From an uncultured Candidatus Micrarchaeota archaeon (GTDB lineage Archaea; Micrarchaeota; Micrarchaeia; Anstonellales; Bilamarchaeaceae), in NCBI GenBank assembly GCA_963714085.1, contig OY970229.1:832001-896000 (forward strand): 64,000 nucleotides of DNA, written 5' to 3'. The position numbers were made by a program, and so were the translations under genes. Numbering within the stretch: position 1 is the first letter of the stretch; every line of letters begins with the position of its first letter. Below the pieces are notes generated by a model. That model was not told where the DNA came from, searched no databases, and worked only from the letters and a program-made list of their open reading frames with translations. This document shows positions 8,127 through 54,866 of the stretch, one piece after another.

Positions 8127-8330
8127 AAAACGCCCGAACAGCAGTAGTGAACTACCCATGCCCAAAGGCATGGCTTTCCTGCTTCGTTGAAGATACTTGC
8201 CAGTTATGTTTATGACCAGTAGAGGTCTCTTCTCCGCAGGCTTTACTTCCCGGCGTCCCGCCGGTAGCTCGTTGGAGTATGTTCAGCGCCGCATTGAGGT
8301 CCCTGTGCATGGATGCACCGCAGGCGCAAT
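8127..8330 (-). ncRNA. Predicted omegaRNA/reRNA overlapping the tnpB 3' end; guide about TACTGCTGTTCGGGCG
   Basis: Established TnpB architecture; hairpin and TCAC end visible; 5' boundary is a guess. Confidence 0.5.
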
Positions 8331-9315
8331 CGTGCCACCTCTCCGCAAGCGTTTTCTTTTGTATAAGACCGCAGTTGCTGCACATCTGGGATGTGTAGGC
8401 GGGATTTACCAGCACGACTTCGCAACCAGCTCCTTCCGCCTTGTAGCTGATCATGCTGACGAACTCCGCCCAGCTGCAGTCCAATACCTCTTTTGCCAGG
8501 AAACCCCGTGCCAATCCTTCGTTGTTCAGCGCTTCCATGGCTATGAGCGAATGGTTCTTCACAAGGTTACTGCTGACCTTGTGCAGGAAATCCCTCCTCT
8601 TATTCGTTAGTTTCTCGTAGGCGATGGCAACCGCCTTTCTGTTTTTGGCCCTGTTCGAGCTGCCCTTCGTTTTATTCGACATCCTCCGCTGGGCGAGCTT
8701 AAGCCGTTCTTCTGCCAATCTGAGATTCCGCGGATTCTCTATCCTTGAGCCATCGCTCAGATACGCGAATGTTTCTATCCCCAAGTCGATTCCGACTGGA
8801 GGCGTCTTGTTTCTCTCCGGCATCTTTCTTTCGGATTCGGTCGTAAAAATCGCATGCCACTTCCCTGAAGGGGATCTCTTTATGACCAGGGTCTTGATTT
8901 CACCGTCCATTTCCCTGTGTTTCCTGATTGCCACGTTCCCTATTCCTGATAGCCCCAGCCTGTCGTTGAGTTTGAAGCCGAACTGTGGATAGGTGAAAGA
9001 CCTCACACGCTCTATTGACTTGAACCGTGGGAATCCCGCCTTCCTGCCGGCTTTCCTCTTTGCGACAAATCCTTTCAGGGATTTTGCAAGCCGGTCTGCA
9101 ACATTCTGGGCTACCTGGGAGAACATGTTGGTTTCTTTTGTCCGTAGGTAAAGCTGCTTTCTGGCAGGGAATTTCCTTGTTTCTTCGTAATTCTCCTTTG
9201 CGTATGCCAGCAGGGAATTCCAGATGGTTTTGCATTCGTAGAGGTGGCGGTCCAGGATTTTTTCCTGGCTTCTTGAAGGGTAAAGCCTGTACTTCCAGGC
9301 TCGCATTACTTTCAT
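8147..9315 (-). mobile_element. IS200/IS605-superfamily element with tnpB only (IS1341-like); right end defined, left end not seen
   Basis: Minus strand ends ...GAAAG CCATGCC-TTTG-GGCATGG GTAGTTCAC (subterminal hairpin plus TCAC end at 8147); no tnpA in window. Confidence 0.7.
8152..9315 (-). CDS. tnpB: RNA-guided endonuclease TnpB
   Basis: KYRLYP N-terminus, GFPRFKS, RuvC residues GIDLG / IAMEAL / HRDLNAA, Zn finger CSNCG...CACG; ATG 9315 lies about 21 nt below a TATA box. Confidence 0.93.
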   Translation of the reverse strand: MKVMRAWKYRLYPSRSQEKILDRHLYECKTIWNSLLAYAKENYEETRKFPARKQLYLRTKETNMFSQVAQNVADRLAKSLKGFVAKRKAGRKAGFPRFKSIERVRSFTYPQFGFKLNDRLGLSGIGNVAIRKHREMDGEIKTLVIKRSPSGKWHAIFTTESERKMPERNKTPPVGIDLGIETFAYLSDGSRIENPRNLRLAEERLKLAQRRMSNKTKGSSNRAKNRKAVAIAYEKLTNKRRDFLHKVSSNLVKNHSLIAMEALNNEGLARGFLAKEVLDCSWAEFVSMISYKAEGAGCEVVLVNPAYTSQMCSNCGLIQKKTLAERWHDCACGASMHRDLNAALNILQRATGGTPGSKACGEETSTGHKHNWQVSSTKQESHAFGHG

Positions 9316-9335
9316 AAAGAGTTGCCTGAAAGGTC

Positions 9336-9369
9336 GTATATAAGCATTTCCCGGGTGGATTTCCGCGGT
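9336..9369 (-). promoter_or_regulatory. tnpB promoter (upstream motif plus BRE/TATA), near copy of 54775-54808
   Basis: Minus strand ACCGCGGAAATCCACCCGGGAAATGCTTATATAC; 30/34 identical to the radA-operon upstream sequence. Confidence 0.7.
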
Positions 9370-9471
9370 GCTCACGACGAAGCTGGCACATTAGGCCCTT
9401 TCGCCCCATATTTGAAAATGTGGGATTTCCCGGACCTGATGCATTTAAAAGCAACAAAAGCGTAATCACTT

Positions 9472-13894: not shown

Positions 13895-16800
13895 ATGGCT
13901 AAAGGATACCGGGGCATGCTACCAATATTGCTATTTCCCCTATTCCTAAGCATACTTTCGCTCACGCAACTAGTTAACATAAGCCATATGGCCGGGCTCA
14001 ATGATGACTTCTCGAACCTCGTGCTCCAGGTCGTGAACGAGAATGGGACCACCACGGTCCCTTACACCATAGTCGGCATGCAGGATGGCCAGTGGGCCAT
14101 GGTCAATGCCACGCTGCCAGGCGCCAATGGAACGCTTGTCGCGTCCGCGTATCCTGATTACTCCTATAACGGCACTGGAGCAGGAAACCAGACCGCAAAT
14201 GCAGGGAGCGCCGCGATTGGGCAGGCCGCTTATTCTTCGGGGTACGCGTATAACGAAACGCTCTCCAATGCTAGCGCCCCGGAAAACGGCAGCGGCGTGC
14301 CGTCCGGTTATGAGAATATAAACGATTTCATGAACCAGTCGAATATCAGCGTCAATCAGACAATCAATGGCTCTTCGGGTTATGTGAATGCCGGTCCGTC
14401 CCTCAATACCACGAACGCCAGCGTGAATGGCAGCGGCGTGCCGTCCGGCTACGAGGATATCGGCGTTTTCATGAACCAGTCGAATATCACCGTCAATCAG
14501 ACGCGCAATATTTCTTCGGGATATATCGATGTCGGCGCGTTCCTCAATGCCACCAACCAAGCCGGTTCATTCGAAGCCATCAGCGCCGGAACCCACGAAC
14601 GCGGGTCGACGAAGCTCATCCAGCTCTCCTACAACGGCTCCCAAGCCGAGATGAGCGCGGACGCCTATGACATGCTAGCGGACAACGCCAGCGTAAGGCT
14701 TATCGTGGAGGGAGGAAGCGGTTTTTCGCGGTACGGGCGGAATATCAGCACCGTAGAAAACATCCCCTCGCGGGGGCTGCATGTGGTCACGGTAGACAAG
14801 CGGTCCCTTGCATTGCTGCTTCAGGCAGGGGCCAGCAAGATATATCTGGACACCCCGGTGCAGGCGCTGCTCAACGACAGCATACCGCTGATACGCGCGG
14901 ACGAGGCTGCGGAGGATTTCAACCTCTCGGGGCAGGGAATCGCCGTCTGCCTCCTGGACACCGGCGTGGACTACAACGAGTCCCAGTTCGGGGGCCAGGT
15001 CCTCCAGGGCTACGATTTGTTGGATAACGTTTCCGGCGCCATGGACGACAACGGCCACGGCACGCTCATGGCGTCCATCATCCATTCCATCGCCCCTGGA
15101 GCGACCATCGTACCAGTCAAGGTGCTGGATTCCACCGGACACGGCTATTCGTCGGACATAATACAGGGCATCGACTACTGCAGGCAGGTTGGGCAGAACG
15201 TCAGGATAATATCCATGAGCTTCGGGGGCGGGAACTTCACGGATTACTGCGACTCCGACCCGCTGGCCATGGCGGTGGAGGACGCATACGACGCGGGGAT
15301 ACTTCCGGTCGCGTCGTCGGGCAACGACGGAGGCGCGGCGATCACCCTGCCGGCCTGCGCCATGAACGCGACCGCCGTGGCCTCCACATCTGGTTCGGAT
15401 TTGATATCCTCCTTCTCCAGCATGAACGGCATGGTGGACCTCCTGGCGCCGGGCGAGGGCATAACCGCGGAAGGATTGGGCGGCCCTCAGACCCGGTCCG
15501 GCACCTCCATCAGCGCGGCGGACGTCTCCGGCGCGGCAGCCCTGCTCGTGGAAAGCAATTCGACACTGGAACCGGTCGACATAACCCGGATATTCAGGAC
15601 GACCGGCATCCCCATCTCGTATGAGGGCGTGACATACCCGCGCATCGACGTGCTCAACGCGGTGATGGACAACGCCACCGGCAATCCCGTGATTCCTCCG
15701 GTAAACGAATCCAACGGGACCGGAGTCGACAACTTCAGCATCGCAATCTGGACCAGCGCCTCTTTCGACAGGTGCATGAACATAACCATAATCAACGTCA
15801 GTAGCTCCAGCCTGGCGAATTTCCCGGCATTGATCAACGTGGCGTATAACACCGACATGCAGTCGAATTACTCCGACCTCAGGTTCTACAGCGCGGGATG
15901 CAACAATGGCGGAACACTCCTGCCCTACGAGATAGAAAACTACACTGCGGCTAACGCCATCGTTTGGGTGGGCATTCCGACCATGAACGCGGCGAACACC
16001 ACGATTTCAGTCTATTACAAGAACAACACCGCGGTGAGCTCGGGGCAGAACGCCACGGGCGTATGGGACGCCAACTTCAGAGGCGTATGGCACCTGAACC
16101 AAAATCCGGCAGGGGCCGCGCCGCAGATGAAGGACAGCACTTCCAATGGCAATAACGGAACCGCCGCAGGGCTCACTGCCGCGAATCAGGTGAGCGGGCA
16201 GATTGACGGAAGCCTGAATTTCACCGGGAGCAGCACCACGACAGTAGTGGTGCCGAACAGCACGTCTACCGATATCACCGGGAACATTCTGACCATCTCC
16301 GCGTGGATAAAGCCGGTCAACCAGACAGGAGGCAACAGCTATGTCTTCCAGAGAGGTAACAACACCGGAGTCGAGCAGTACGCCCTTGTATTCAGCCGCA
16401 CGAACACCAGTAGCGGTGCCGGCAGCATGGGCGCTGTCGTCAACAATACCATCGTCGCAAGAAGCGCCAACAACAGCATAACCATAAACAACTGGGCTTA
16501 TGTCGCATTCGTGTGCAATGGCACCGCGGTCACTGATTACCTGAACGGAGTGGTCGTGAACACGACGAATTACAATACGACCCTGACCTCGGTTTTCGAA
16601 TCCAACATCAGTTTCGGCATAAAGTGGCCGAACAGCAACGCCTACCTAGGCGGGATAGACGAGGTGGAGCTTTCCAACGCGGCCAGGAGCGCGCAGTGGA
16701 TAAACCAGAGCTACCAGATGCAGTACAACAACAGCAAGTGGATCGTCTTCGGAGCCGCGCAGACCAGGCCCACCACAGGCGTTGCTCTCAACAGCCCTGC

Positions 16801-19800
16801 GAACGGCTCCCTCCTCAACTCCACCAGCGTAAATTTCAACTGGACGTGCACCGGCAGCTCGAGTTTGTTCACGGCCAACCTCACCATTGACGGCGTGCTC
16901 AACGTGAGCGCCATCAACTCCACGAACAACACCGCGACCAACTACAGCGTCAGCGGATTGGCCCTGAGCAACCACACCTGGAGCATAACGTGCATAGACC
17001 CGAACAACAACAGCATAGCGTCCGCGACATGGAACTTCACGCTGCAGAACACCTGCCCGGTGATAAACGCGAGCGGCACCACGACCATGACCGGCAATTA
17101 CGTCGGTGCTCCCAACAACGCTTCACCCCTAGCCAACTTCACCTGTGTGAAGATAGCGGCCTCCAACGTCACCCTCAACTGCAACGGGTTCAGCATCACG
17201 AACAACGGCACCAACGGGACTACCTATGGCATCCTGCTCAACGGCTCTATCAGCAACGTCACCATAGAGAACTGTCCCGGAGTATCCAATTACACCTACG
17301 GCATCTACGTCTATAATTCCAACCACAGCAACATCTTCAACAGCACGGCATTCAACAACTCCTTTGTCGGTATGGACTTCAATTCGAGCTCCAATGACAC
17401 GATTACCAACTCCACCGGATCGGCCACCTCAGGCTTCGGATTATACCTCAATGCGACCACCAACAGCCAATTCGTCAACGTCACAGGCTCGGCCATCTCA
17501 GGCTACGGCATCTACATCCAATCAAGCGCCAACTTCACAATCACCAACTCAACCGGATCGTCCAGCTCCCAGGCCGGCATCGTCCTGGCCAACAGCTCCA
17601 ATGAGACTATCACCAACTGCATCGGAACTTCCAACTCCAGCTACGGCATCTATCTGACAATCAACTCCAACGGCACAATCACCAATTCCTCGGGGAATTC
17701 CAATACGAGCTATGGCTTCTTCCTCAACCAGAGCAACAGCAACAACCTCACGGGCGACAATGCATCTGGCAGTTTCTTCGGTTTCTACCTGGTCAACAGC
17801 AGCTCAAATCAGTTCACCAACAGCTTCGCATACAACGACACAAACGGTTTCGTCATCAATTCCAGCTCCAACAGCAATAACTTCACGAATAACAGCGCGT
17901 ATGGCAATTCCAATATCGGCTTGCTCATATACGACTCCAACCTTACAACTGTGCAGGGCATGCACTTCTACAACAACAGCCCTGACCTGGAGGTGCAGGA
18001 TGATTTCGGCTCCCAGATCGTATTGAACCTCACTAGTATGGTCTTCGACAACCGCTTGGGGAACTACCAGAATTACACCAACCTGAGCATCAACGATACC
18101 GTGAATAATAGCGAGACGTACTCGATCAAATGGACGACAAATTCATCGGCTCTGCCGTCCGGTTATTCCAGCTTTGCGCAGGAATTCGTGAATATAAGTG
18201 TGATCAGCGGCGCTCCGTCTATAAGCTCCGTCACCTGGAGCTGGCTCGCGAGCCAGCTCAGCGGCTACAACCAGAGCTGGTTCGGGTTATTCGACTATAA
18301 TGGCACCTGGCAGCTCCTGAACAACTCTCCGAATACGACGACCCAGACGCTGTCGATCACGAACCTCACAGCGAGCGGCATATACGGCATCCTGGAGCTC
18401 AACAGCACTCCCAACGTGACCTTGAAGGCCCCGGGCAACAACTCGATCTTGAATATCTCTTCCGCAAACTTCAATTTCACCGCGGTGGACAGCTTCTCTT
18501 CCGCAATGAACTGCTCTCTTTATGTCGATGGGACGCTGAAGGGGACGAACACGTCCGTCAGCAACAATACCGCCACCAACATCACCGTTGGCAGCATCGC
18601 TGACGGAAAACACACCTGGTACGTCCAATGCGAGAATGCCGTCAACAACACCGGGACTTCCGCCACCTGGAACTTCACGGTGCAGAACAACTGCCCTGTG
18701 ATAAATGCGAGCGGCACAGAGACCATGGTAACAAATTTCGTAGGCGCTCCCAACAATGCTTCGCCCCTCACCAACTTCACCTGTGTGAAGATAGCGGCCT
18801 CCAACGTCACCCTCAACTGCAACGGGTTCAGCATCACGAACAACGGCACCAACGGGACTACCTATGGCATCCTGCTCAACGGCTCTATCAGCAACGTCAC
18901 CATAGAGAACTGTCCCGGAGTATCCAATTACACCTACGGCATCTACGTCTATAATTCCAACCACAGCAACATCTTCAACAGCACGGCATTCAACAACTCC
19001 TTTGTCGGTATGGACTTCAATTCGAGCTCCAATGACACGATTACCAACTCCACCGGATCGGCCACCTCAGGCTTCGGATTATACCTCAATGCGACCACCA
19101 ACAGCCAATTCGTCAACGTCACAGGCTCGGCCATCTCAGGCTACGGCATCTACATCCAATCAAGCGCCAACTTCACAATCACCAACTCAACCGGATCGTC
19201 CAGCTCCCAGGCCGGCATCGTCCTGGCCAACAGCTCCAATGAGACTATCACCAACTGCATCGGAACTTCCAACTCCAGCTACGGCATCTATCTGACAATC
19301 AACTCCAACGGCACAATCACCAATTCCTCGGGGAATTCCAATACGAGCTATGGCTTCTTCCTCAACCAGAGCAACAGCAACAACCTCACGGGCGACAATG
19401 CATCTGGCAGTTTCTTCGGTTTCTACCTGGTCAACAGCAGCTCAAATCAGTTCACCAACAGCTTCGCATACAACGACACAAACGGTTTCGTCATCAATTC
19501 CAGCTCCAACAGCAATAACTTCACGAATAACAGCGCGTATGGCAATTCCAATATCGGCTTGCTCATATACGACTCCAACCTTACAACTGTGCAGGGCATG
19601 CACTTCTACAACAACAGCCCTGATCTGGAGGCACAAGATGACCAGGGCTCCTCGTTCATATTGAACCTCTCGAGCATGATCTTCGACAGCCCGCTGGACA
19701 ACTACCAGAATTACACCAACCTGAGCATCAATGACACCGTGAACAGTGGCGAGACATATTCTATCAAATGGACGACCACCCAGACCGCGCCTCCATACAC

Positions 19801-22800
19801 CTCGTTCGCCCAGACTTACGTGAACATAAGCACCATAGCCGGTGCGGTGTCCATAAACAGCATCGTCTGGAGCTGGATCAGCGGACAGCTCACTGGATAC
19901 AACAGCAGCCTGTTCCAGCTCTGGAACTACAACGCCACCGGCTGGACAATGCTGAACAGCACTCCTAACACCGTAGGGAACACCCTCGGCCTCTTCAACC
20001 TTGCTCCTCAGAACATATATGCCATACTCCAAGTCGCCAAATGCCCAATCATCAACTCTAGCGGTGTCTACAAACAGGGCGGGAACTACATCGGCGCTCC
20101 TAACAACGCTTCGCCGCTAACGAATTTCACCTGCGTAGAGATAGCCGCATCCAATGTCACTTTCGACTGCAACGGATTCACCATAACCAACAATGCTACT
20201 GCGGGGACGACCTACGGCATACTGGTCAATGGTTCGCTGAAAAACGTGACAGTCCAGAACTGCCCGGGGATATCGAATTACACCTACGGCATCTACGTCT
20301 ATCAGTCCAACAACAGCATTATAACCAACAGCACCGCCTACAATAACACTAATTGTGGCTTGTCCATCTACTCCGGCTCCAACAATAGCATCACCAACAG
20401 CATCGCCTACAACAATGCCCAGTACGGTTTCTGTCTCATCACCAGTTCCGGCAACAACATAACCAACAGTACCGCCTACAATAACACTAATTATGGCTTC
20501 GACGTCTCCTCCAGCTCCAACGATACCATCGCCAACAGCATCGCCTACAATAACCCTAGCAGTGGCTTCTCCATCTACTCCGGCTCCAACAATAGCATCA
20601 CTAACAACTCCGTCTACAATAACGCCTATGGTTTCCTCCTCTCCTCCACCTCCAACGATACCTTCACCAACAACACCGCCTACAGCAACCCCACTGGTTT
20701 CTACATCTACTCCAGCTCCAACAACACCTTCACCAACAACTCCGCCTACAGCAGTACGTATGGTTTCTTCCTCTCCACCAGCTCCAACAATAACATCTTA
20801 ACCAACAACTCCGCCTACAGCAGTACGTATGGTTTCTTCCTCTCCAACAGCTCCAACAGTACCATCACCAACAGCATCGCCTACAACAATACCCAGTATG
20901 GCTTCGACGTCTACTCCAGCTCCAACAACAATACCCTGATCAACAACAGCGCATACAACAACCCCAGTATCGGCTTGATGGTATACGACTCCAACCTTAC
21001 AGCGGTGCGGGGCATGCACTTCTACAACAACAGCCCTGACCTGGAGGTGCAGGATGACCAGGGCTCCTCGTTCATATTGAACCTCTCGAGCATAGTCTTC
21101 GACAACCCCTTGGGGAACTACCAGAACTACACCAACCTGAGCATCAATGACACCGTGAACAACAGCGAGACATATTCCATCAACTGGACGACCAACCAGA
21201 CCGCGCCTCCATACACCTCTTTCGCCCAGACTTACGTGAACATAAGCACCATAGCCGGTGCGGTGTCAATAGACAGCATCGTCTGGAGCTGGACCAGCGG
21301 CCAGCTCACTGGATACAACAGCAGCCTGTTCGAGCTCTGGGGTTACAACTCAAGTGGATGGACCATGCTGAACAGCACGCCGAACACCGCCGCTAATATA
21401 CTGGGCATGACCAATTTCAACCCAGGAGCTATCTACGGCATCCTCCAGTATGATGGTAACTGCCCGCTCATAAACAAAAGCCAGGTTTATACCGAAAACA
21501 CAAGTTACACAGGAGCTCCGAATGTCGTCTCCCAGCTGGGCGGCACTGCTTGCGTGGAGATAACCGCATCCAATGTCACTTTCAACTGCAATGGCTATAA
21601 CATCACGAACAAAGGCGTAGGAGGGACGACTTATGGCATCGTGCTCAATGGCTCCCTCACTAATGTCACGGTGGAGAACTGCCCCGGGGTATCCAATTAC
21701 AGCTACGGCATCTATGTCTATAAGTCCAACAACAGCGTTATAATCAACAGCACCGCTTACAACAATACCCAGTCTGGCTTCGACATATCCTCCAGCTCCA
21801 ACAACAATACCATAACCAACAGCAGCGCCTACAATAACACCTATTATGGCTTTTACCTCGAATCCAGCTTCAACAATACCATAACCAACAGCACTGCCCA
21901 CAATAACCCTAGTAGCGGCTTCGCCATGTACTCGGGCTCCAACAATACCCTTACCAACGACTCCGCCTACAATAACGCCTATGGTTTCCTCCTCGCTTAT
22001 ACCTCCAACAATACCATAGCCAACAGCAGCACCTACAATAACACCAATTATGGCTTCTACCTCGGCTTCAGCTCCAACAATACCATAGCCAACAGCACTG
22101 CCCACAATAACCCTAGCAGCTTCACCATCATCTCGAGCTCCAACAACATCTTAACCAGCAACACCGCTTACAACAATTCCCTTTATGGTTTCGACATCTA
22201 CTCCAGCTCCAACAATACCATAGCCAACAGCACTGCCTACAGCAATTCCTATTATGGCTTCTACCTCGAGTCCGGCTCCAACAACAATACCATAACCAAC
22301 AGCACTGCCTACAACGATACATTTTCTGGCTTCTACCTCGGCTCCAGCTCCAACAACAGCATCCTCATCAACAATACCGCATACAGCAACCCCAGTACCG
22401 GCTTGATGGTATACGACTCCAACCAGACCACGGTGCGGGGCATGCACTTCTACAACAACAGCCCTGACCTGGAGGTGCAGGATGATTTCGGCTCCCAGAT
22501 CGTATTGAACCTCACTAGTATGGTCTTCGACAACCGCTTGGGGAACTACCAGAATTACACCAACCTGAGCATCAACGATACCGTGAATAATAGCGAGACG
22601 TACTCGATCAAATGGACGACAAATTCATCGGCTCTGCCGTCCGGTTATTCCAGCTTTGCGCAGGAATTCGTGAATATAAGTGTGATCAGCGGCGCTCCTG
22701 TCATTGATTATACCGCATGGAGCTGGCTCGCGAGCCAGCTCGGCGGCTACAACCAGAGCTGGTTCGGGTTATTCGACTATAATGGCACCTGGCAGCTTCT

Positions 22801-25800
22801 GAACAACTCTCCGAACACGGCGGCCCAGACGCTGTCGATCACGAACCTCACATCGAGCGCCATATACGGCATCCTGGAGCTCAACAGCACCCCGAAAGTG
22901 ACCTTGAACGCCCCGGGCAACAACTCGACATTGAATTCATCTTCCGTGACCTTCAACTTCACCGCAGTGGACAATATCTCAACGACAATGAACTGCTCTA
23001 TCTACCTTGACGGAGTGTTCAATCAGACCAACACTTCAACGAGCAATAACACTGCGACGACCTTCATGATCAACAATGTAACCGATGGCAATCACACTTG
23101 GTACGTCGCATGCGAGAACGGCGCGAACAACACGGGAACGTCTGCGACCTGGAACTTCACGATGCATAATAACTGCCCGGTCGTCAGCGCGAGCGGCACT
23201 TATACCCAGAATTCGAACTACGTCGGGGCGCCCAACACCGTCGGAGGAGGCACGGCTTGCGTGGAAATCACGGCGTCCAACGTGGTCTTCAACTGCAACG
23301 GGTACAACATCACCAATAACGGGACCGGGGGCACGACCTACGGTGTCATTGTGTCCACCGGCGGGTCGCTCACCAACGTCACGGTGAAGAACTGCCCCAG
23401 CATATCGAGCTACAGCCACGGAGTCTATCTGTCCGCTGACAACAGCAGCACGATAAGCAATGTGACGGCCCATAACAATTCCCAAGACGATTTCGCCCTT
23501 CCATCTTCGACCTTGGTGACCTTCGTCTTTGACACCTCCTACGGCTCGCCATACGGCTTCCACCTGATTACCAGCACGAACAATAACTTCACGGACAACA
23601 CCGCCCACGATGCCTCGACAGCCGCCTTCTTCCTGGATGGCGACGGTTCCAACTACAACAATTTCACCAGCAACAGCGTTTATAATTCAGCGGACGGCTT
23701 CTACTTATTAGGCGGTTATGCAGGCAGCTCCGATAACAACTTCATCAACGACAGCGCCTACAACAACTCGCGGGCGGGCTTCGATTTTTATACCGCCGCC
23801 TTCAACAATCTGACGGGCAATAACGCCTCGGGCAACGCGTACGGCTTCAGGCTGGCCTACAGCCCCGGAAACCAGCTCGCGAACAACACCGCGTCTTACG
23901 ACGCATATGGTTTCGTCATCAATACCAGCTCCGAGGAGAACATCCTCACCAACGACAGCGCATACGGCAATTCCATCGCCGGCTTGCTGGTGAACAACTC
24001 CGGCCCGACACTGACGGCGGTGGGCATGCACTTCTTCAACAACAGCCTTGACCTGATGGCGCAGGCTGCTAGCGTATTGAATTTCACCGGCATCGTATTC
24101 GACAATCCACTGGGGAACTACCAGAATTACACCAACCTGAGCATCAACGACAGCGTGGACAGCGGCGAAGCATATTCCATCAACTGGTCCATGAACACCT
24201 CGACCCTGCCAACCGGTTACATCAGCTTCGCGCAGGAGTTCGTGAACATAACCATGACCAGCGGCAGTCCATCCATAGACTCCGTCACCTGGAGCTGGAT
24301 CGCGAGCCAGCTCAGCGGCTACAACCAGAGTTGGTTCGGGCTATTCGACTATAACGGGACCTGGCAGCTCCTGAACAACTCTCCGAATACGACGACCCAG
24401 ACGCTGTCGATCACGAACCTCACAGCGAGCGGCATATACGGCATCCTGGAGCTCAACAGCACTCCCAACGTGACCTTGAACGCCCCGGGCAACAACTCGA
24501 TTTCAAGCACCTCTTCTGTAACGTTCAACTTCACCGCGGTGGACAATATCTCGACTACGATGAACTGCTCCATCTACCTCGATGGGGTGTTCAACCAGAC
24601 CAATACCTCGACGGGCAATAACACTGCCACGACTTTCACAATCAATGGCATAAGCGATGGTAAGCACACCTGGTACGTCCAATGCGAGAATGCCGCCAAC
24701 AATACCGGGACTTCCGCCATCTGGAACTTCACTGTGCAGAGCAACTGCCCGGTGGTAACCACGTCCGGGACATACACCCAATCTACCAATTACATAGGAG
24801 CGCCGAACAATGCCACTCCACTCAACAATTTCACCTGCGTGAAGATAGCCGCATCCAACGTCATTTTCAACTGCAACAGATTCAATATCACGAACAATGG
24901 CACCAACGGAACGACCTACGGCATGCTCGTCAACGGCTCCCTGAAGAACGTGACGATAGTGAACTGCCCGGGCGTATCAGGCTATACCACCGGCATCTAC
25001 GTCTACCAGTCGAACAGCACCAACATCACGAACGACGGCGCCTACAACAACACCTACGGCATCCAGCTCACAGGCTCGTCGGGCGTGAACATCTCCCTGA
25101 GCAATTTCACGAACAACTCCAACACCGGGCTGGCCATAGATAGCCTGAGCGGCTCCAACACCTTCGCTTCCGACAGGTTCTGCTTCAACAATGTGAGCGA
25201 CATCAACAACAGCGGCTCCTCCAACAGCGGCTCGTTGGATGCTTGCGGTTACTGGAGCAACTGGAACGAAAACAGTCATGCTGGCTGCGCCTACAGCTGC
25301 TCGCTGGTGTGGCAGGAATTCTTCGGCAACATCACCGGGAAGCAGTTCCTGGCCCCGAACCACAGCCAGATTTTCTATTCATGGATATGGAATGGTACGA
25401 GCGGTATGATCTTCGCCTTCAACAGCGGCGTCAGCATCAACTGGGCGAACATCACCGCCCTAGGCAAGAACACCACCGGGGGAAGCTCGACCACCGACTT
25501 CACGACTCTTGATACGCTGCTCAGCATGAACGGAAGCCCTGACAACATCACGGGTCTCTACAGCAACGGAAGCGCTCCGAAGGCGACCGCCAACATGACG
25601 ATATATGGCAGGCCCGTGACGTACGTGCCGCTCGCGAACTCATCCTCGGCGTCCTCGAATTCCAGCTCGACGACGGGTATCCTGTGGGACGATTCCACCA
25701 ATACCGGAGGCCATTTCGCCAGCGGGAGCAACGTCGTCTTCGTGACCCAGGTGAACCAGACCAGCTCCAGCCAGTATGACATCAGGGTCCCGAGCGGCCT

Positions 25801-53416: not shown

Positions 53417-54385
53417 TCAGTCGCATATCCCTTCCTTCCTGACCCTGAACACGCATTCGCCCTCGGGCAGGTTCGGCGAGTCCACGAGCCGTGCGATGCG
53501 CTTGTCATCCTTCGACTTGCGCAGATAGACTCTGTACGTCGAGGAATGGGCCACTACGTTCCCACCGATTGGTTTGGTCGGGTCCCCGAACAGCATGCCA
53601 GGATCATCCATCACCTGGTTCGTCAGGTAGACCGCGATGTTGTAGCTGTCCGCCAGCCTCTGCAGGGTGTGCACATGCTTGTTCAGCTTCTGCTGCCTCT
53701 CGCCTAGCGCGCCTCTCCCCAAATAATCCGAGCGGAAGTGCGATGTGAGCGAGTCCACCACAATGAGCCCGATGTTCTTCTCCTTTATCAGGTCCTCGCA
53801 TTTCTCTATCAGAATTATCTGGTGGTCGGAGTTCTCCGCCCTTGCGACGTGGATGTTCTTCAGCACCTCCAACGCATCCATGCCCTGGGCCTCGGCCAGC
53901 TGCGCGATGCGGTCCGGCCTGAAGGTGTGCTCAGTGTCCACGAAGATGACTCCCTTCCCGAGCCCGCCCTGTTCCACAGGCTTCTGGACGTTCACGCAGA
54001 GCTGGAACCCCAGTTGGCTTTTTCCGGAACTGAACCTCGCGTATGCTTCGGTGATGGCCTGCGTCTCCACTCCACCGCCCAGTAGCTCGTCTAAAGCTTT
54101 GGAGCTCGTTGCGATTCTGCCAATCACTTTCCTGCGCTCTAAGACCATGTCGCCGCTCTCGAACCCGATTTCCACCATGGATTTGGCGGCCTCGATTGCT
54201 TTTTTCGAGGCTTCCACGCCTATCCCGCTTATCTCGGAGAGGTCCTGCGGAGACATCGTCGCCAGCTTCGGGAACTCGCTGTAACCCGCGGCCCTTATCT
54301 TCTCCGCTGACACCTCGCCTATCCCGGGAAGGTCCTCGAGGTCCTTGTAGAATTTCTTCTTTTTGTCGTTTTTATCTTCCGTCAT
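53417..54385 (-). CDS. radA: DNA repair and recombination protein RadA
   Basis: [54 protein letters not shown]. Confidence 0.96.
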
Positions 54386-54390
54386 ATCAA

Positions 54391-54708
54391 TCACTGTTCG
54401 GTCTGCTTGGTCTCGAACTTGCTCGCGTTCGGGAACACAAGGAGCTTGAGCTGCCCTATCTTGAGCGTGTAGAATTCGTTGCCCTGCTTGGAGACATTCT
54501 TCCACATGCCGCCCACATTCACATATACTGATTTTCCGTCCTTGTCGCGGTCGGTCTGCACCACGCGGAAATCCGGCCTGTTGCCGCTTGAAGCCGGGCC
54601 GCCCACGTTCGGCTTGGAGCCCGTGCTCACGGGCGCGGTCTCGGTTTTCTCATCCCCCGTAATCTCCTCGAATCCCTCATCGCCTAAATTCACTTCAGTT
54701 TCTTTCAT
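54391..54708 (-). CDS. DUF736-like small protein, co-oriented with radA
   Basis: RPDFRV...[20 protein letters not shown]; acidic N-terminus; 5 nt from the radA start. Confidence 0.65.
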
Positions 54709-54774
54709 ACCAATCGCCTGAGTATATACTTATACACTATAAGTATACATACTAAGGGGTTAGGGGAAAACCTG

Positions 54775-54808
54775 GTATAAAAGCGTTTCGGGGGTGGATT
54801 TCCGCGGT
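54775..54808 (-). promoter_or_regulatory. Promoter of the DUF736-like/radA operon
   Basis: Minus strand ACCGCGGAAATCCACCCCCGAAACGCTTTTATAC (BRE/TATA-like at its 3' end); matches 9336-9369. Confidence 0.7.
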
Positions 54809-54866
54809 TCCGCGGTGAACAAAATCCCCCAATCCATCCCTGTGAAACAATCCCTTTCAATGGTTA

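Follow-up and report, generated by a model that had tools for sequence, protein, structure and literature searches.

In the archaeal DNA analyzed here, a stretch of 64,000 nucleotides (nt) from an uncultured Candidatus Micrarchaeota archaeon (the window), one 17-nt promoter sequence, referred to below as the box, precedes both a transposon-borne tnpB gene, which encodes a protein of the RNA-guided endonuclease family, and the operon that contains the host gene radA. We put at about 0.8 the probability that the box serves as a regulatory site by which tnpB is coupled to a set of host genes including radA and nreA, a reading that draws on counts throughout the genome and on promoter comparisons among relatives. 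The genome of which the window is a part is a single contig of 1,571,539 bp (1.57 Mb) with 57% G+C, labelled G000 and belonging to genus g1; the comparison set consisted of 99 genomes of the same family spread over 23 genera (g1-g23).

The box in the window and throughout the genome

The likeness between the two promoters had been pointed out in an earlier examination of the letters of the window (the sequence-only reading), and it is borne out by the alignment of positions 9336-9369 with positions 54775-54808, which are identical at 30 of 34 positions, share an exact 17-mer, have an equal 9-nt gap between this 17-mer and a TATA-like octamer and lie in the same orientation to their genes. The minus strand reads ACCGCGGAAATCCACCC-gggaaatgc-TTATATAC from 9369 to 9336 (the tnpB promoter) and ACCGCGGAAATCCACCC-ccgaaacgc-TTTTATAC from 54808 to 54775 (the promoter of an operon consisting of a small open reading frame, or ORF, and radA). 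The elements of the two promoters, with the evidence for each, are as follows:

9353..9369, minus strand: 17-nt box ACCGCGGAAATCCACCC, with the core CCGCGGAAAT, of the tnpB promoter (sequence, counts, promoter alignment)
9336..9343, minus strand: TATA-like octamer TTATATAC of tnpB (sequence, spacing table)
54792..54808, minus strand: 17-nt box ACCGCGGAAATCCACCC of the small ORF-radA operon promoter (sequence, counts, promoter alignment)
54809..54816, minus strand: additional direct half-copy ACCGCGGA adjoining the radA-operon box (sequence)
54775..54782, minus strand: TATA-like octamer TTTTATAC of the radA operon (sequence, spacing table)

The distance from the end of the tnpB TATA-like octamer to the ATG of the gene (9315-9313) is 21 nt, as had been claimed, and the tnpB mRNA is therefore predicted to be leaderless. 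At a tolerance of up to three mismatches the 17-mer has three matches in the window, against an expectation of 0.24, and none of 100 shuffles reached three. The third match (50730, two mismatches) is situated within an ORF of 381 amino acids (aa), so that the box occurs at no further promoter of the window, again in agreement with the sequence-only reading. A scan for bacterial sigma-70 promoters, a type of scan that is irrelevant to archaeal promoters, returned no sites.

In the whole genome, for which the controls were the reversed pattern and an order-3 Markov model, the 17-mer occurs seven times exactly, 10 times with at most one mismatch, 12 times with at most two and 15 times with at most three, compared with 0, 0, 0 and 2 occurrences of the reversed pattern at the same tolerances and with 0.0003 exact occurrences expected from the Markov model. 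The core CCGCGGAAAT is found 20 times, versus two times for its reversed pattern and a Markov expectation of 5.1. Fifteen of these 20 exact core matches are held by 13 promoters, and a 14th promoter, that of a tnpB copy, reads CCGTGGAAAT; at all 14 the core has one orientation and ends 14-18 nt upstream of a TATA-like octamer, which at tnpB and nreA is in turn located 21-22 nt before the ATG. Of the five core matches that remain, one lies inside a tnpB gene, on the opposite strand judging by the coordinates, and four have no TATA context in the flanks that were read.

The 14 promoters that carry the box are those of eight tnpB genes and six host genes or operons. The eight are all the tnpB genes of the genome; they are free of stops and belong to two families of insertion sequence (IS), six (the window copy included) to family A and two to family B, in which the left end differs and the core is doubled. 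The host promoters precede the following genes:

the small ORF-radA operon
nreA-DUF498
yhcG (YhcG PDDEXK nuclease)-DUF763-418-aa Mrr-like protein
DUF2797
a 229-aa LAGLIDADG_3 endonuclease
a 120-aa protein with no family match

The product of nreA has the Nre_N and Nre_C domains, and its match to the NCBIfam entry 'DNA repair protein NreA' is below the cut-off of that entry. For the 120-aa protein, a Pfam search with E values up to 10 gave nothing, and a sequence search against solved structures produced nothing useful for this protein, for the small ORF or for DUF763. The third gene of the yhcG-DUF763 operon (L004:2575-3828, at about 1113274-1114527 of the genome) encodes the 418-aa protein, which matches Mrr_cat weakly and contains a module of ~45 aa four times over (..Y..I....G....Y.EI......L..YF.....AY...GV); by eye, these repeats look like those associated with homing endonucleases.

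When the six types of box promoter in this genome are aligned, the sole invariant block is CCGCGGAAATCCACCC, accompanied by scattered positions of the TATA element. The likeness between IS and host promoters is thus that of the box and not of a longer shared fragment, and with the similarity confined to the box and the TATA element, the possibility that the motif is a generic dispersed repeat can be set aside. The genome-wide motif search that the sequence-only reading had proposed as a check located the box at the promoters of radA, nreA and several nucleases. A literature search with the box string returned solely unrelated primers and virus sequences.

Variants of the box in related genera

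With at most one mismatch, the 17-mer is present in just three of the 99 genomes, all of the same genus. In the two relatives it precedes the radA operon (G049), the ortholog of the 120-aa gene and two tnpB genes (G050); since the radA operon of G050 is preceded by the 17-mer with two mismatches, the box stands at radA in all three genomes of the genus. The radA gene was searched for in 61 genomes of the family and found in 59, and upstream of it in relatives the box is conserved, as the sequence-only reading had suggested should be checked, in the form of genus-specific variants. Besides g2 and g6, such variants occur at radA in g3, g4, g7, g8, g14, g16, g17 and g23. Upstream of the TATA element of the radA operon the following were read:

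g2 and g6: (C)CGCGGAAATGA..
g3: TACTGGAAGCAGTGGAAACC
g4: ATTACTGGCATCACTGGC..GGAGGTCTCC
g8: CACTGGAGCCACCGGAAACG
g14: ATACCGGAAACACCGGAAATGAGG
g16: ACTGGAAAGCACCCC
g23: two TTTATCGGCCA repeats plus CCCCCTCCCCCCTGCT

In g2 and g6 the sequence CCGCGGAAATGA.. stands at both radA and nreA, and nreA is preceded by the variant of the respective genus in G000, in G050, in three g2 genomes and in two g16 genomes.

The promoters of tnpB, a gene present in 49 of the 99 genomes, follow the variant of the host. Among the 29 tnpB upstream regions that were read, (C)CGCGGAAATGA/G.. lies before the TATA element in g2 (13/13) and g6 (1/1), the promoters of g3 and g16 read CACTGGAAAC.., three of the four copies in g4 carry ATTAC(T/C)GGC..GGAG(A)GG(T/C)CTCC in agreement with the radA promoter of g4, and one copy in g23 has a 58-nt block in common with the radA promoter of the same genome. 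In an all-against-all local alignment of 30 radA-operon and 30 tnpB promoters, the mean score was 12.9 for pairs from the same genus (n=95) versus 8.2 for pairs from different genera (n=805), a difference reached by none of 2000 label shuffles, although this count overstates the significance because related genomes are not independent. Where radA and tnpB promoters come from the same genome, seven of nine pairs align exactly on the box.

By these promoter sequences, seven genera each have their own variant common to host and IS. The suggestion that a single promoter capture had taken place in this genome is therefore too narrow, inasmuch as the link between tnpB and radA promoters spans at least seven genera with different variants. 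The box is also retained at radA in seven genomes with no tnpB match (G006, G027, G053, G057, G063, G079 and G084), which makes it a host element that is carried by the transposons. The same left-end hairpin of the IS recurs in g1, g2, g4, g6, g19 and g23, and the layout of the element is accordingly modular, with a left-end hairpin, a host-matched box, a TATA element and tnpB; in both tnpB promoters of g19 the left-end hairpin adjoins the TATA element, with no box in between.

A second view of the targets is provided by g2. A count of CGCGGAAATG in five well-assembled g2 genomes gave 31 sites, versus 10 for the reversed pattern, and a TATA-like element lies downstream at 12 of the 30 sites that were read. 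These 12 precede two small ORF-radA operons, a DUF763 gene, two LAGLIDADG_3 genes, a gene for a XhoI-type restriction nuclease and four copies of one conserved leader (three of the four seen with a micro-ORF akin to the 120-aa gene), and two are unclear cases; two further g2 sites lie between an Orc1 paralog and a divergently oriented ATP-cone/Mrr_cat gene. The g2 target set overlaps that of G000 and consists in part of genes for recombination and repair and in part of DNA cutters of a selfish type.

The small gene behind the box is about 41-55 aa in length in g2, where it has a conserved leader hairpin, GTCGGGGA..TCCCCGG (L117, L119, L120, L121), versus 120 aa in this genome (L009:558-917); the part common to both is L..YR..L...E..VFD.L..YA.E. 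In two g2 genomes, G038 and G031 (L134:1512-2393, L136:1547-2386), the ATP-cone is fused to an Mrr-type nuclease domain, and the fusion gene is divergent from the Orc1/Cdc6 paralog, with boxes in the common intergenic region.

A candidate regulator and the alternatives to it

In g2 and g6 the box consists of the palindrome ATTTCCGCGGAAAT, after which come GA and a run rich in G/C. The origin recognition box (ORB) of archaea has been printed as the consensus CTTCCAGTGGAAACGAAAGGGGT and as GTTCCAGTGGAAAC-AAA----GGGGG (PMC4153887 Table 2; PMC1868953), with natural variants such as GTTCCAGTGGAAATGA-AGGGGT (PMC4153887; PMC1868953). Set against the ORB definition (TTCCAGTGGAAA dyad plus G-run), the g2/g6 variant has the dyad minus one base and (A/T)GA after it; its sequence, ATTTCCGCGGAAATGA.., fits a pattern of TTCC..GGAAA, then (A/T)GA and a G/C-rich run, and it resembles an ORB-like dyad that is one base shorter. 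It differs from known ORBs in that the boxes are single or double at promoters and not clustered around an AT-rich unwinding element, and in that the variant of G000 keeps just the right half and CCACCC. No ORB repeats were seen near the main orc1 gene or in the 1-kb gap before the TFB gene.

There are three Orc1/Cdc6-like genes in G000, namely the main gene, one at 292 kb and a chromosomal paralog of 360 aa with what looks by eye like a winged-helix tail. Genomes of 16 genera encode relatives of the paralog, matched over nearly its full length with an E value of about 1e-45 or better; such relatives were not found in g19 (0/7), g5, g9, g11, g18, g21 and g22, where the search gave only the weaker match expected of the main Orc1. 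Among the paralog-carrying genera for which a radA-operon promoter was read, eleven show the box and the twelfth, g15 (G074), is ambiguous, and no recognisable box was seen by eye at radA in the paralog-less g19 (0/5), g5, g11 and g18. In 14 of 14 g2/g6 genomes the promoter of the paralog itself contains TTTCCGCGGAAAT and TTCCGCG directly before the TATA element, which makes the paralog at least a member of the box set. Tentatively, then, we name the 360-aa Orc1/Cdc6 paralog as the leading candidate for the regulator that reads the box, with the caution due to a proposal that falls short of even odds.

A precedent for such a role is found in the Sulfolobales, where Orc1-2 is described as binding an ANTTTC promoter element and activating damage-response genes (PMC6061795). 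The two systems have in common a short promoter motif at genes for DNA transactions, at which a non-initiator Orc1/Cdc6 protein binds and activates in the Sulfolobales (PMC6061795), and the paralog belongs to the box set as Orc1-2 belongs to its own regulon. The systems differ in other respects. The DNA-damage-responsive element (DDRE) of the Sulfolobales, as given there, has ANTTTC within a 20-bp consensus, whereas the box on its other strand is GGATTTCC, with no A-N-T-T-T-C fit; and the Orc1-2 targets named there are ups, ced and tfb3, whereas the box targets are radA, nreA and transposons. The lineage is also a different one, and the candidate is nearest to structures of the Orc1-1 type (2qby_A 6e-40, 2v1u 4e-38), with a value of just 2e-13 for ORC2 (1w5s). 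The latter protein, from Aeropyrum, we take to stand for the Orc1-2 clade, to which the paralog would not belong by its structure-sequence matches.

How the box might act can be outlined as follows. It is somewhat probable that one regulator, probably the second Orc1/Cdc6 protein, binds the box and switches on the eight tnpB and six host promoters of G000 together, in response to a trigger that might be DNA damage, replication state or DNA uptake. The bound protein would help to recruit TBP and TFB and thus act as an activator; archaeal activators usually act immediately upstream of the B recognition element (BRE) and TATA element, and the place of the box just upstream of BRE/TATA therefore tips the balance slightly toward activation and away from repression. 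The synthesis of TnpB, and probably also that of its guide RNA if the two are co-transcribed, would then coincide with that of RadA and NreA, and the cuts of TnpB would fall in a cell that is primed for homologous recombination, the repair route by which the element is copied back. In bacteria, homologous recombination is reported to mend the cuts made by TnpB and to copy the element in doing so, whereby the transposon is retained (bioRxiv 10.1101/2023.03.14.532601); coupling to radA would therefore time the cutting to the repair capacity of the cell, and the same timing logic might fit the LAGLIDADG and other nucleases of the set. Of the proposal that an RNA-guided nuclease had been wired into a repair regulon, either by domestication or by promoter capture, the regulon part stands at the level of sequence (radA, nreA, nucleases), and domestication and a single capture do not.

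Several observations weigh against this reading of the box or against parts of it. Two of the nine same-genome pairs of radA and tnpB promoters (G088, G098) have nothing in common, no box was seen at nreA of G049 (of the same genus as G000) or of most other genera, and DUF2797, DUF763 and the 120-aa gene are without a known link to repair. Strong-looking core promoters would be equally compatible with repression and activation. The box at radA in other genera was called present or absent by eye, and the genomes compared are related and thus not independent; the paralog-less g19 has a conserved block of its own, TTTTCC..GAAAA, before the radA TATA element, which may be another variant. As to the candidate regulator, the left half of the ORB dyad is missing from the g1 box, the g1 paralog promoter has only CCGGAACCGG, which follows the TATA element, and no box is evident at the paralog promoter in g3, g4, g16 and g23 (one genome each, with uncertain starts). 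Two ORB-like sites beside an orc1-type gene also look like a replication origin.

The alternative that fares best leaves the regulon in place and gives it a different regulator, either the main Orc1 protein or an unrelated transcription factor, with the paralog as just another target. We consider this a serious possibility, if still below an even chance, in that the boxes in the paralog promoter show only its status as a target, the phyletic match between paralog and box rests on few clades and the box of G000 is only half ORB-like; the ORB-like dyad of g2 and g6, the co-occurrence of paralog and box and the Orc1-2 precedent speak for the paralog nonetheless, and no other DNA-binding protein turned up among the box targets. 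An E2F-like reading of TTTCCGCG was also considered and dropped, there being no E2F_TDP match in the genome.

It is less likely, and on the whole doubtful, that the set is tied to replication and the cell cycle or to DNA uptake instead of damage, with an Orc1-type protein coupling recombination genes and mobile nucleases. ORB-like sites, an Orc1-type candidate and the presence of the orc1 paralog itself among the targets would fit such a dependence on replication state, which is a special case of the regulon reading and leaves that reading standing; on the other side, radA and nreA are repair genes by family, and the one Orc1-type regulator of this sort that has been studied responds to damage.

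The remaining explanations would do away with the regulon. Host promoters might have been built from left-end fragments of the IS, in which case the common 34 bp would be an IS scar; the IS is multi-copy and the box lies within it, between the left-end hairpin and tnpB, yet the host sites are without the left-end hairpin or other IS sequence, orthologous radA promoters have the box across genera (the seven genomes without a tnpB match included) and both IS families have it despite their different left ends, so that we regard an IS scar as very improbable. More improbable still is an extended core-promoter element read by a second, truncated TFB. The genome does have two TFB genes, and the place of the box beside BRE/TATA is fixed, but at least 8-9 nt separate the end of the box from the TATA element, which places the box beyond a BRE, with extra copies at variable distances, and the second TFB cannot read a box that is widespread in the family when its ortholog occurs in one of the 98 other genomes and is absent even from its own genus. 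That a chance likeness of two good archaeal promoters is at work, the BRE/TATA parts of which would be alike anyway, is refuted for practical purposes by the box counts versus controls, the cross-genus promoter alignments and the six-promoter alignment. The second TFB (genome 1286278-1287075, minus strand; L186:279-1076) is a protein of 266 aa that has both cyclin folds and no N-terminal zinc ribbon; the one other genome with an ortholog is G032.

Genes of mobile elements are known to be under the control of LexA, the bacterial SOS repressor, as for the Tn5 transposase, integron integrases and prophages. In these cases a selfish element puts a damage-regulon site of the host in its own promoter and acts when repair is active, which is the likeness to the coupling of tnpB proposed here; the differences are that the present case is archaeal and without LexA, that the gene in question is the RNA-guided nuclease of a tnpB-only IS and that the site co-varies with the host across genera. 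TnpB is the ancestor of Cas12, and to our knowledge the control of TnpB genes in natural hosts, and the persistence of tnpB-only elements without a transposase, are largely unexplored.

Other IS200/IS605-family systems approach the present one from different sides. ISDra2 of Deinococcus radiodurans is likewise linked to DNA damage and repair, with a single-stranded DNA substrate as the trigger and no radiation-induced expression found (PMC2806898); here the link lies in the promoter, and no tnpA was found in the genome. The study of TnpB as a homing nuclease concerned bacteria and, in the part seen, did not address host control of tnpB transcription (bioRxiv 10.1101/2023.03.14.532601). The Arc repressor of IS605 genes is reported to be a case of transcriptional control in TnpB elements that is encoded by the element itself (bioRxiv 10.64898/2026.09.24.754181), where a host box is used here. 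TldR is described as a nuclease-dead, domesticated TnpB that acts as a regulator (PMC10705468); the TnpB considered here is intact, multi-copy and the regulated party. Searches of open-access papers and preprints turned up neither a description of a tnpB promoter that holds a host regulon site nor one of a regulon of this type in these archaea.

A promoter of a tnpB-only element that is tied over many genera to a box of host radA and nreA would represent a testable link between an RNA-guided nuclease and recombination. It would also supply a first candidate for a DNA-repair transcriptional regulon in these small archaea, one for which the box is defined, the targets are listed and a candidate regulator is named, and it suggests that Orc1/Cdc6 proteins may have been recruited as transcription factors on more than one occasion. 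More speculatively, and at odds that we regard as rather low, a lineage-specific Orc1/Cdc6 duplicate might have become a transcription factor independently of Sulfolobales Orc1-2 and might read ORB-like boxes for a programme of recombination and repair, with unrelated selfish cutters (TnpB transposons, LAGLIDADG and restriction-type nucleases) each having taken up the box and keeping it matched to the changing version of the host, so that they would cut only in a cell prepared to mend its DNA by copying.

The transposon and the radA operon

The boundaries of the tnpB element were derived from the six family-A copies, which align from TTTTAAATGC (at about 9450 in the window) to GGGTAGTTCAC (8147) and no further, with pairwise identities of 78-83%. 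Its parts in the window are as follows:

8147..9450, minus strand: whole IS, about 1.3 kb, tnpB-only, IS200/IS605 type (six-copy alignment)
8152..9315, minus strand: tnpB, 387 aa, RNA-guided endonuclease family (profile matches)
9394..9436, minus strand: left-end hairpin region GGTCC..GGAAATCC-stem-loop-..GAAAGGGCC (alignment of copies)
8147..8185, minus strand: right end, hairpin CCATGCCTTTGGGCATGG plus terminal GTTCAC (alignment of copies)

The tnpB gene had been described as having no visible left end and no tnpA. The former statement does not hold, the five other copies revealing a conserved left end, which starts near 9450 and includes the hairpin region 9394-9436, as well as a right end at 8147; the latter does, since the Y1 transposase family PF01797 has no match in the 1.57-Mb genome while control genomes were positive. 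The protein has an OrfB_IS605 domain and a C-terminal zinc-ribbon/TNB domain, with profile matches to PF01385 (6.6e-23), PF07282 (1.7e-24) and PF12323 (1.6e-09) and, above its cut-off, to NF040570 (2.7e-88). Forms of IS200/IS605 that consist of tnpB only are known, and the present element is an old, multi-copy, tnpB-only member of this type (IS1341-like). Because the gene is part of a complete IS with both ends and six diverged copies, it is not domesticated, as had been considered.

Within the IS the box is positioned between the left-end hairpin and the TATA element. The stems of this hairpin vary between copies by paired changes; folded by itself, the left end of the window copy is no better than shuffles (z 0.8). 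The stop codon of tnpB (TAG, 8154-8152) falls within the right end, at which (8147..8185) the scaffold of an omega-RNA would end; an Rfam scan for omega-RNA gave no relevant family, the sole match being a chance one to a long noncoding RNA (E 0.07).

The radA operon of the window consists of the following:

54719..54756, minus strand: TAAGTATATACTTA-type palindromes arranged as an inverted repeat, located between the TATA element and the ATG of the radA operon (conserved in most genera)
54391..54708, minus strand: first gene of the operon, a conserved small ORF of 105 aa that matches DUF736 weakly (profile match, relatives)
53417..54385, minus strand: radA (ATG 5 nt after the stop of the small ORF)

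The inverted repeat, of which AGTATATACT is unique in this genome, is probably a second, radA-specific operator (for a repressor) or a leader hairpin. The small ORF precedes radA in most of the loci of the family that were read, and in relatives (L024-L053, L146-L159) it has 77-126 aa, an acidic N-terminus and a weak DUF736 match; it may be an undescribed partner of RadA. In several relatives (G092:C40, G069:C132, G082:C5, G078:C16, G056:C25, G021, G096:C67) the radA match is split into two or three segments of open frames that span 590-845 aa, which suggests that inteins have been inserted in the gene. Elsewhere in the window, at about 16400-25100, there is a large and apparently coding block of diverged direct repeats with a periodicity of 66-72 nt and higher-order units of 1.4-1.6 kb, which probably represents several paralogous giant repeat proteins.

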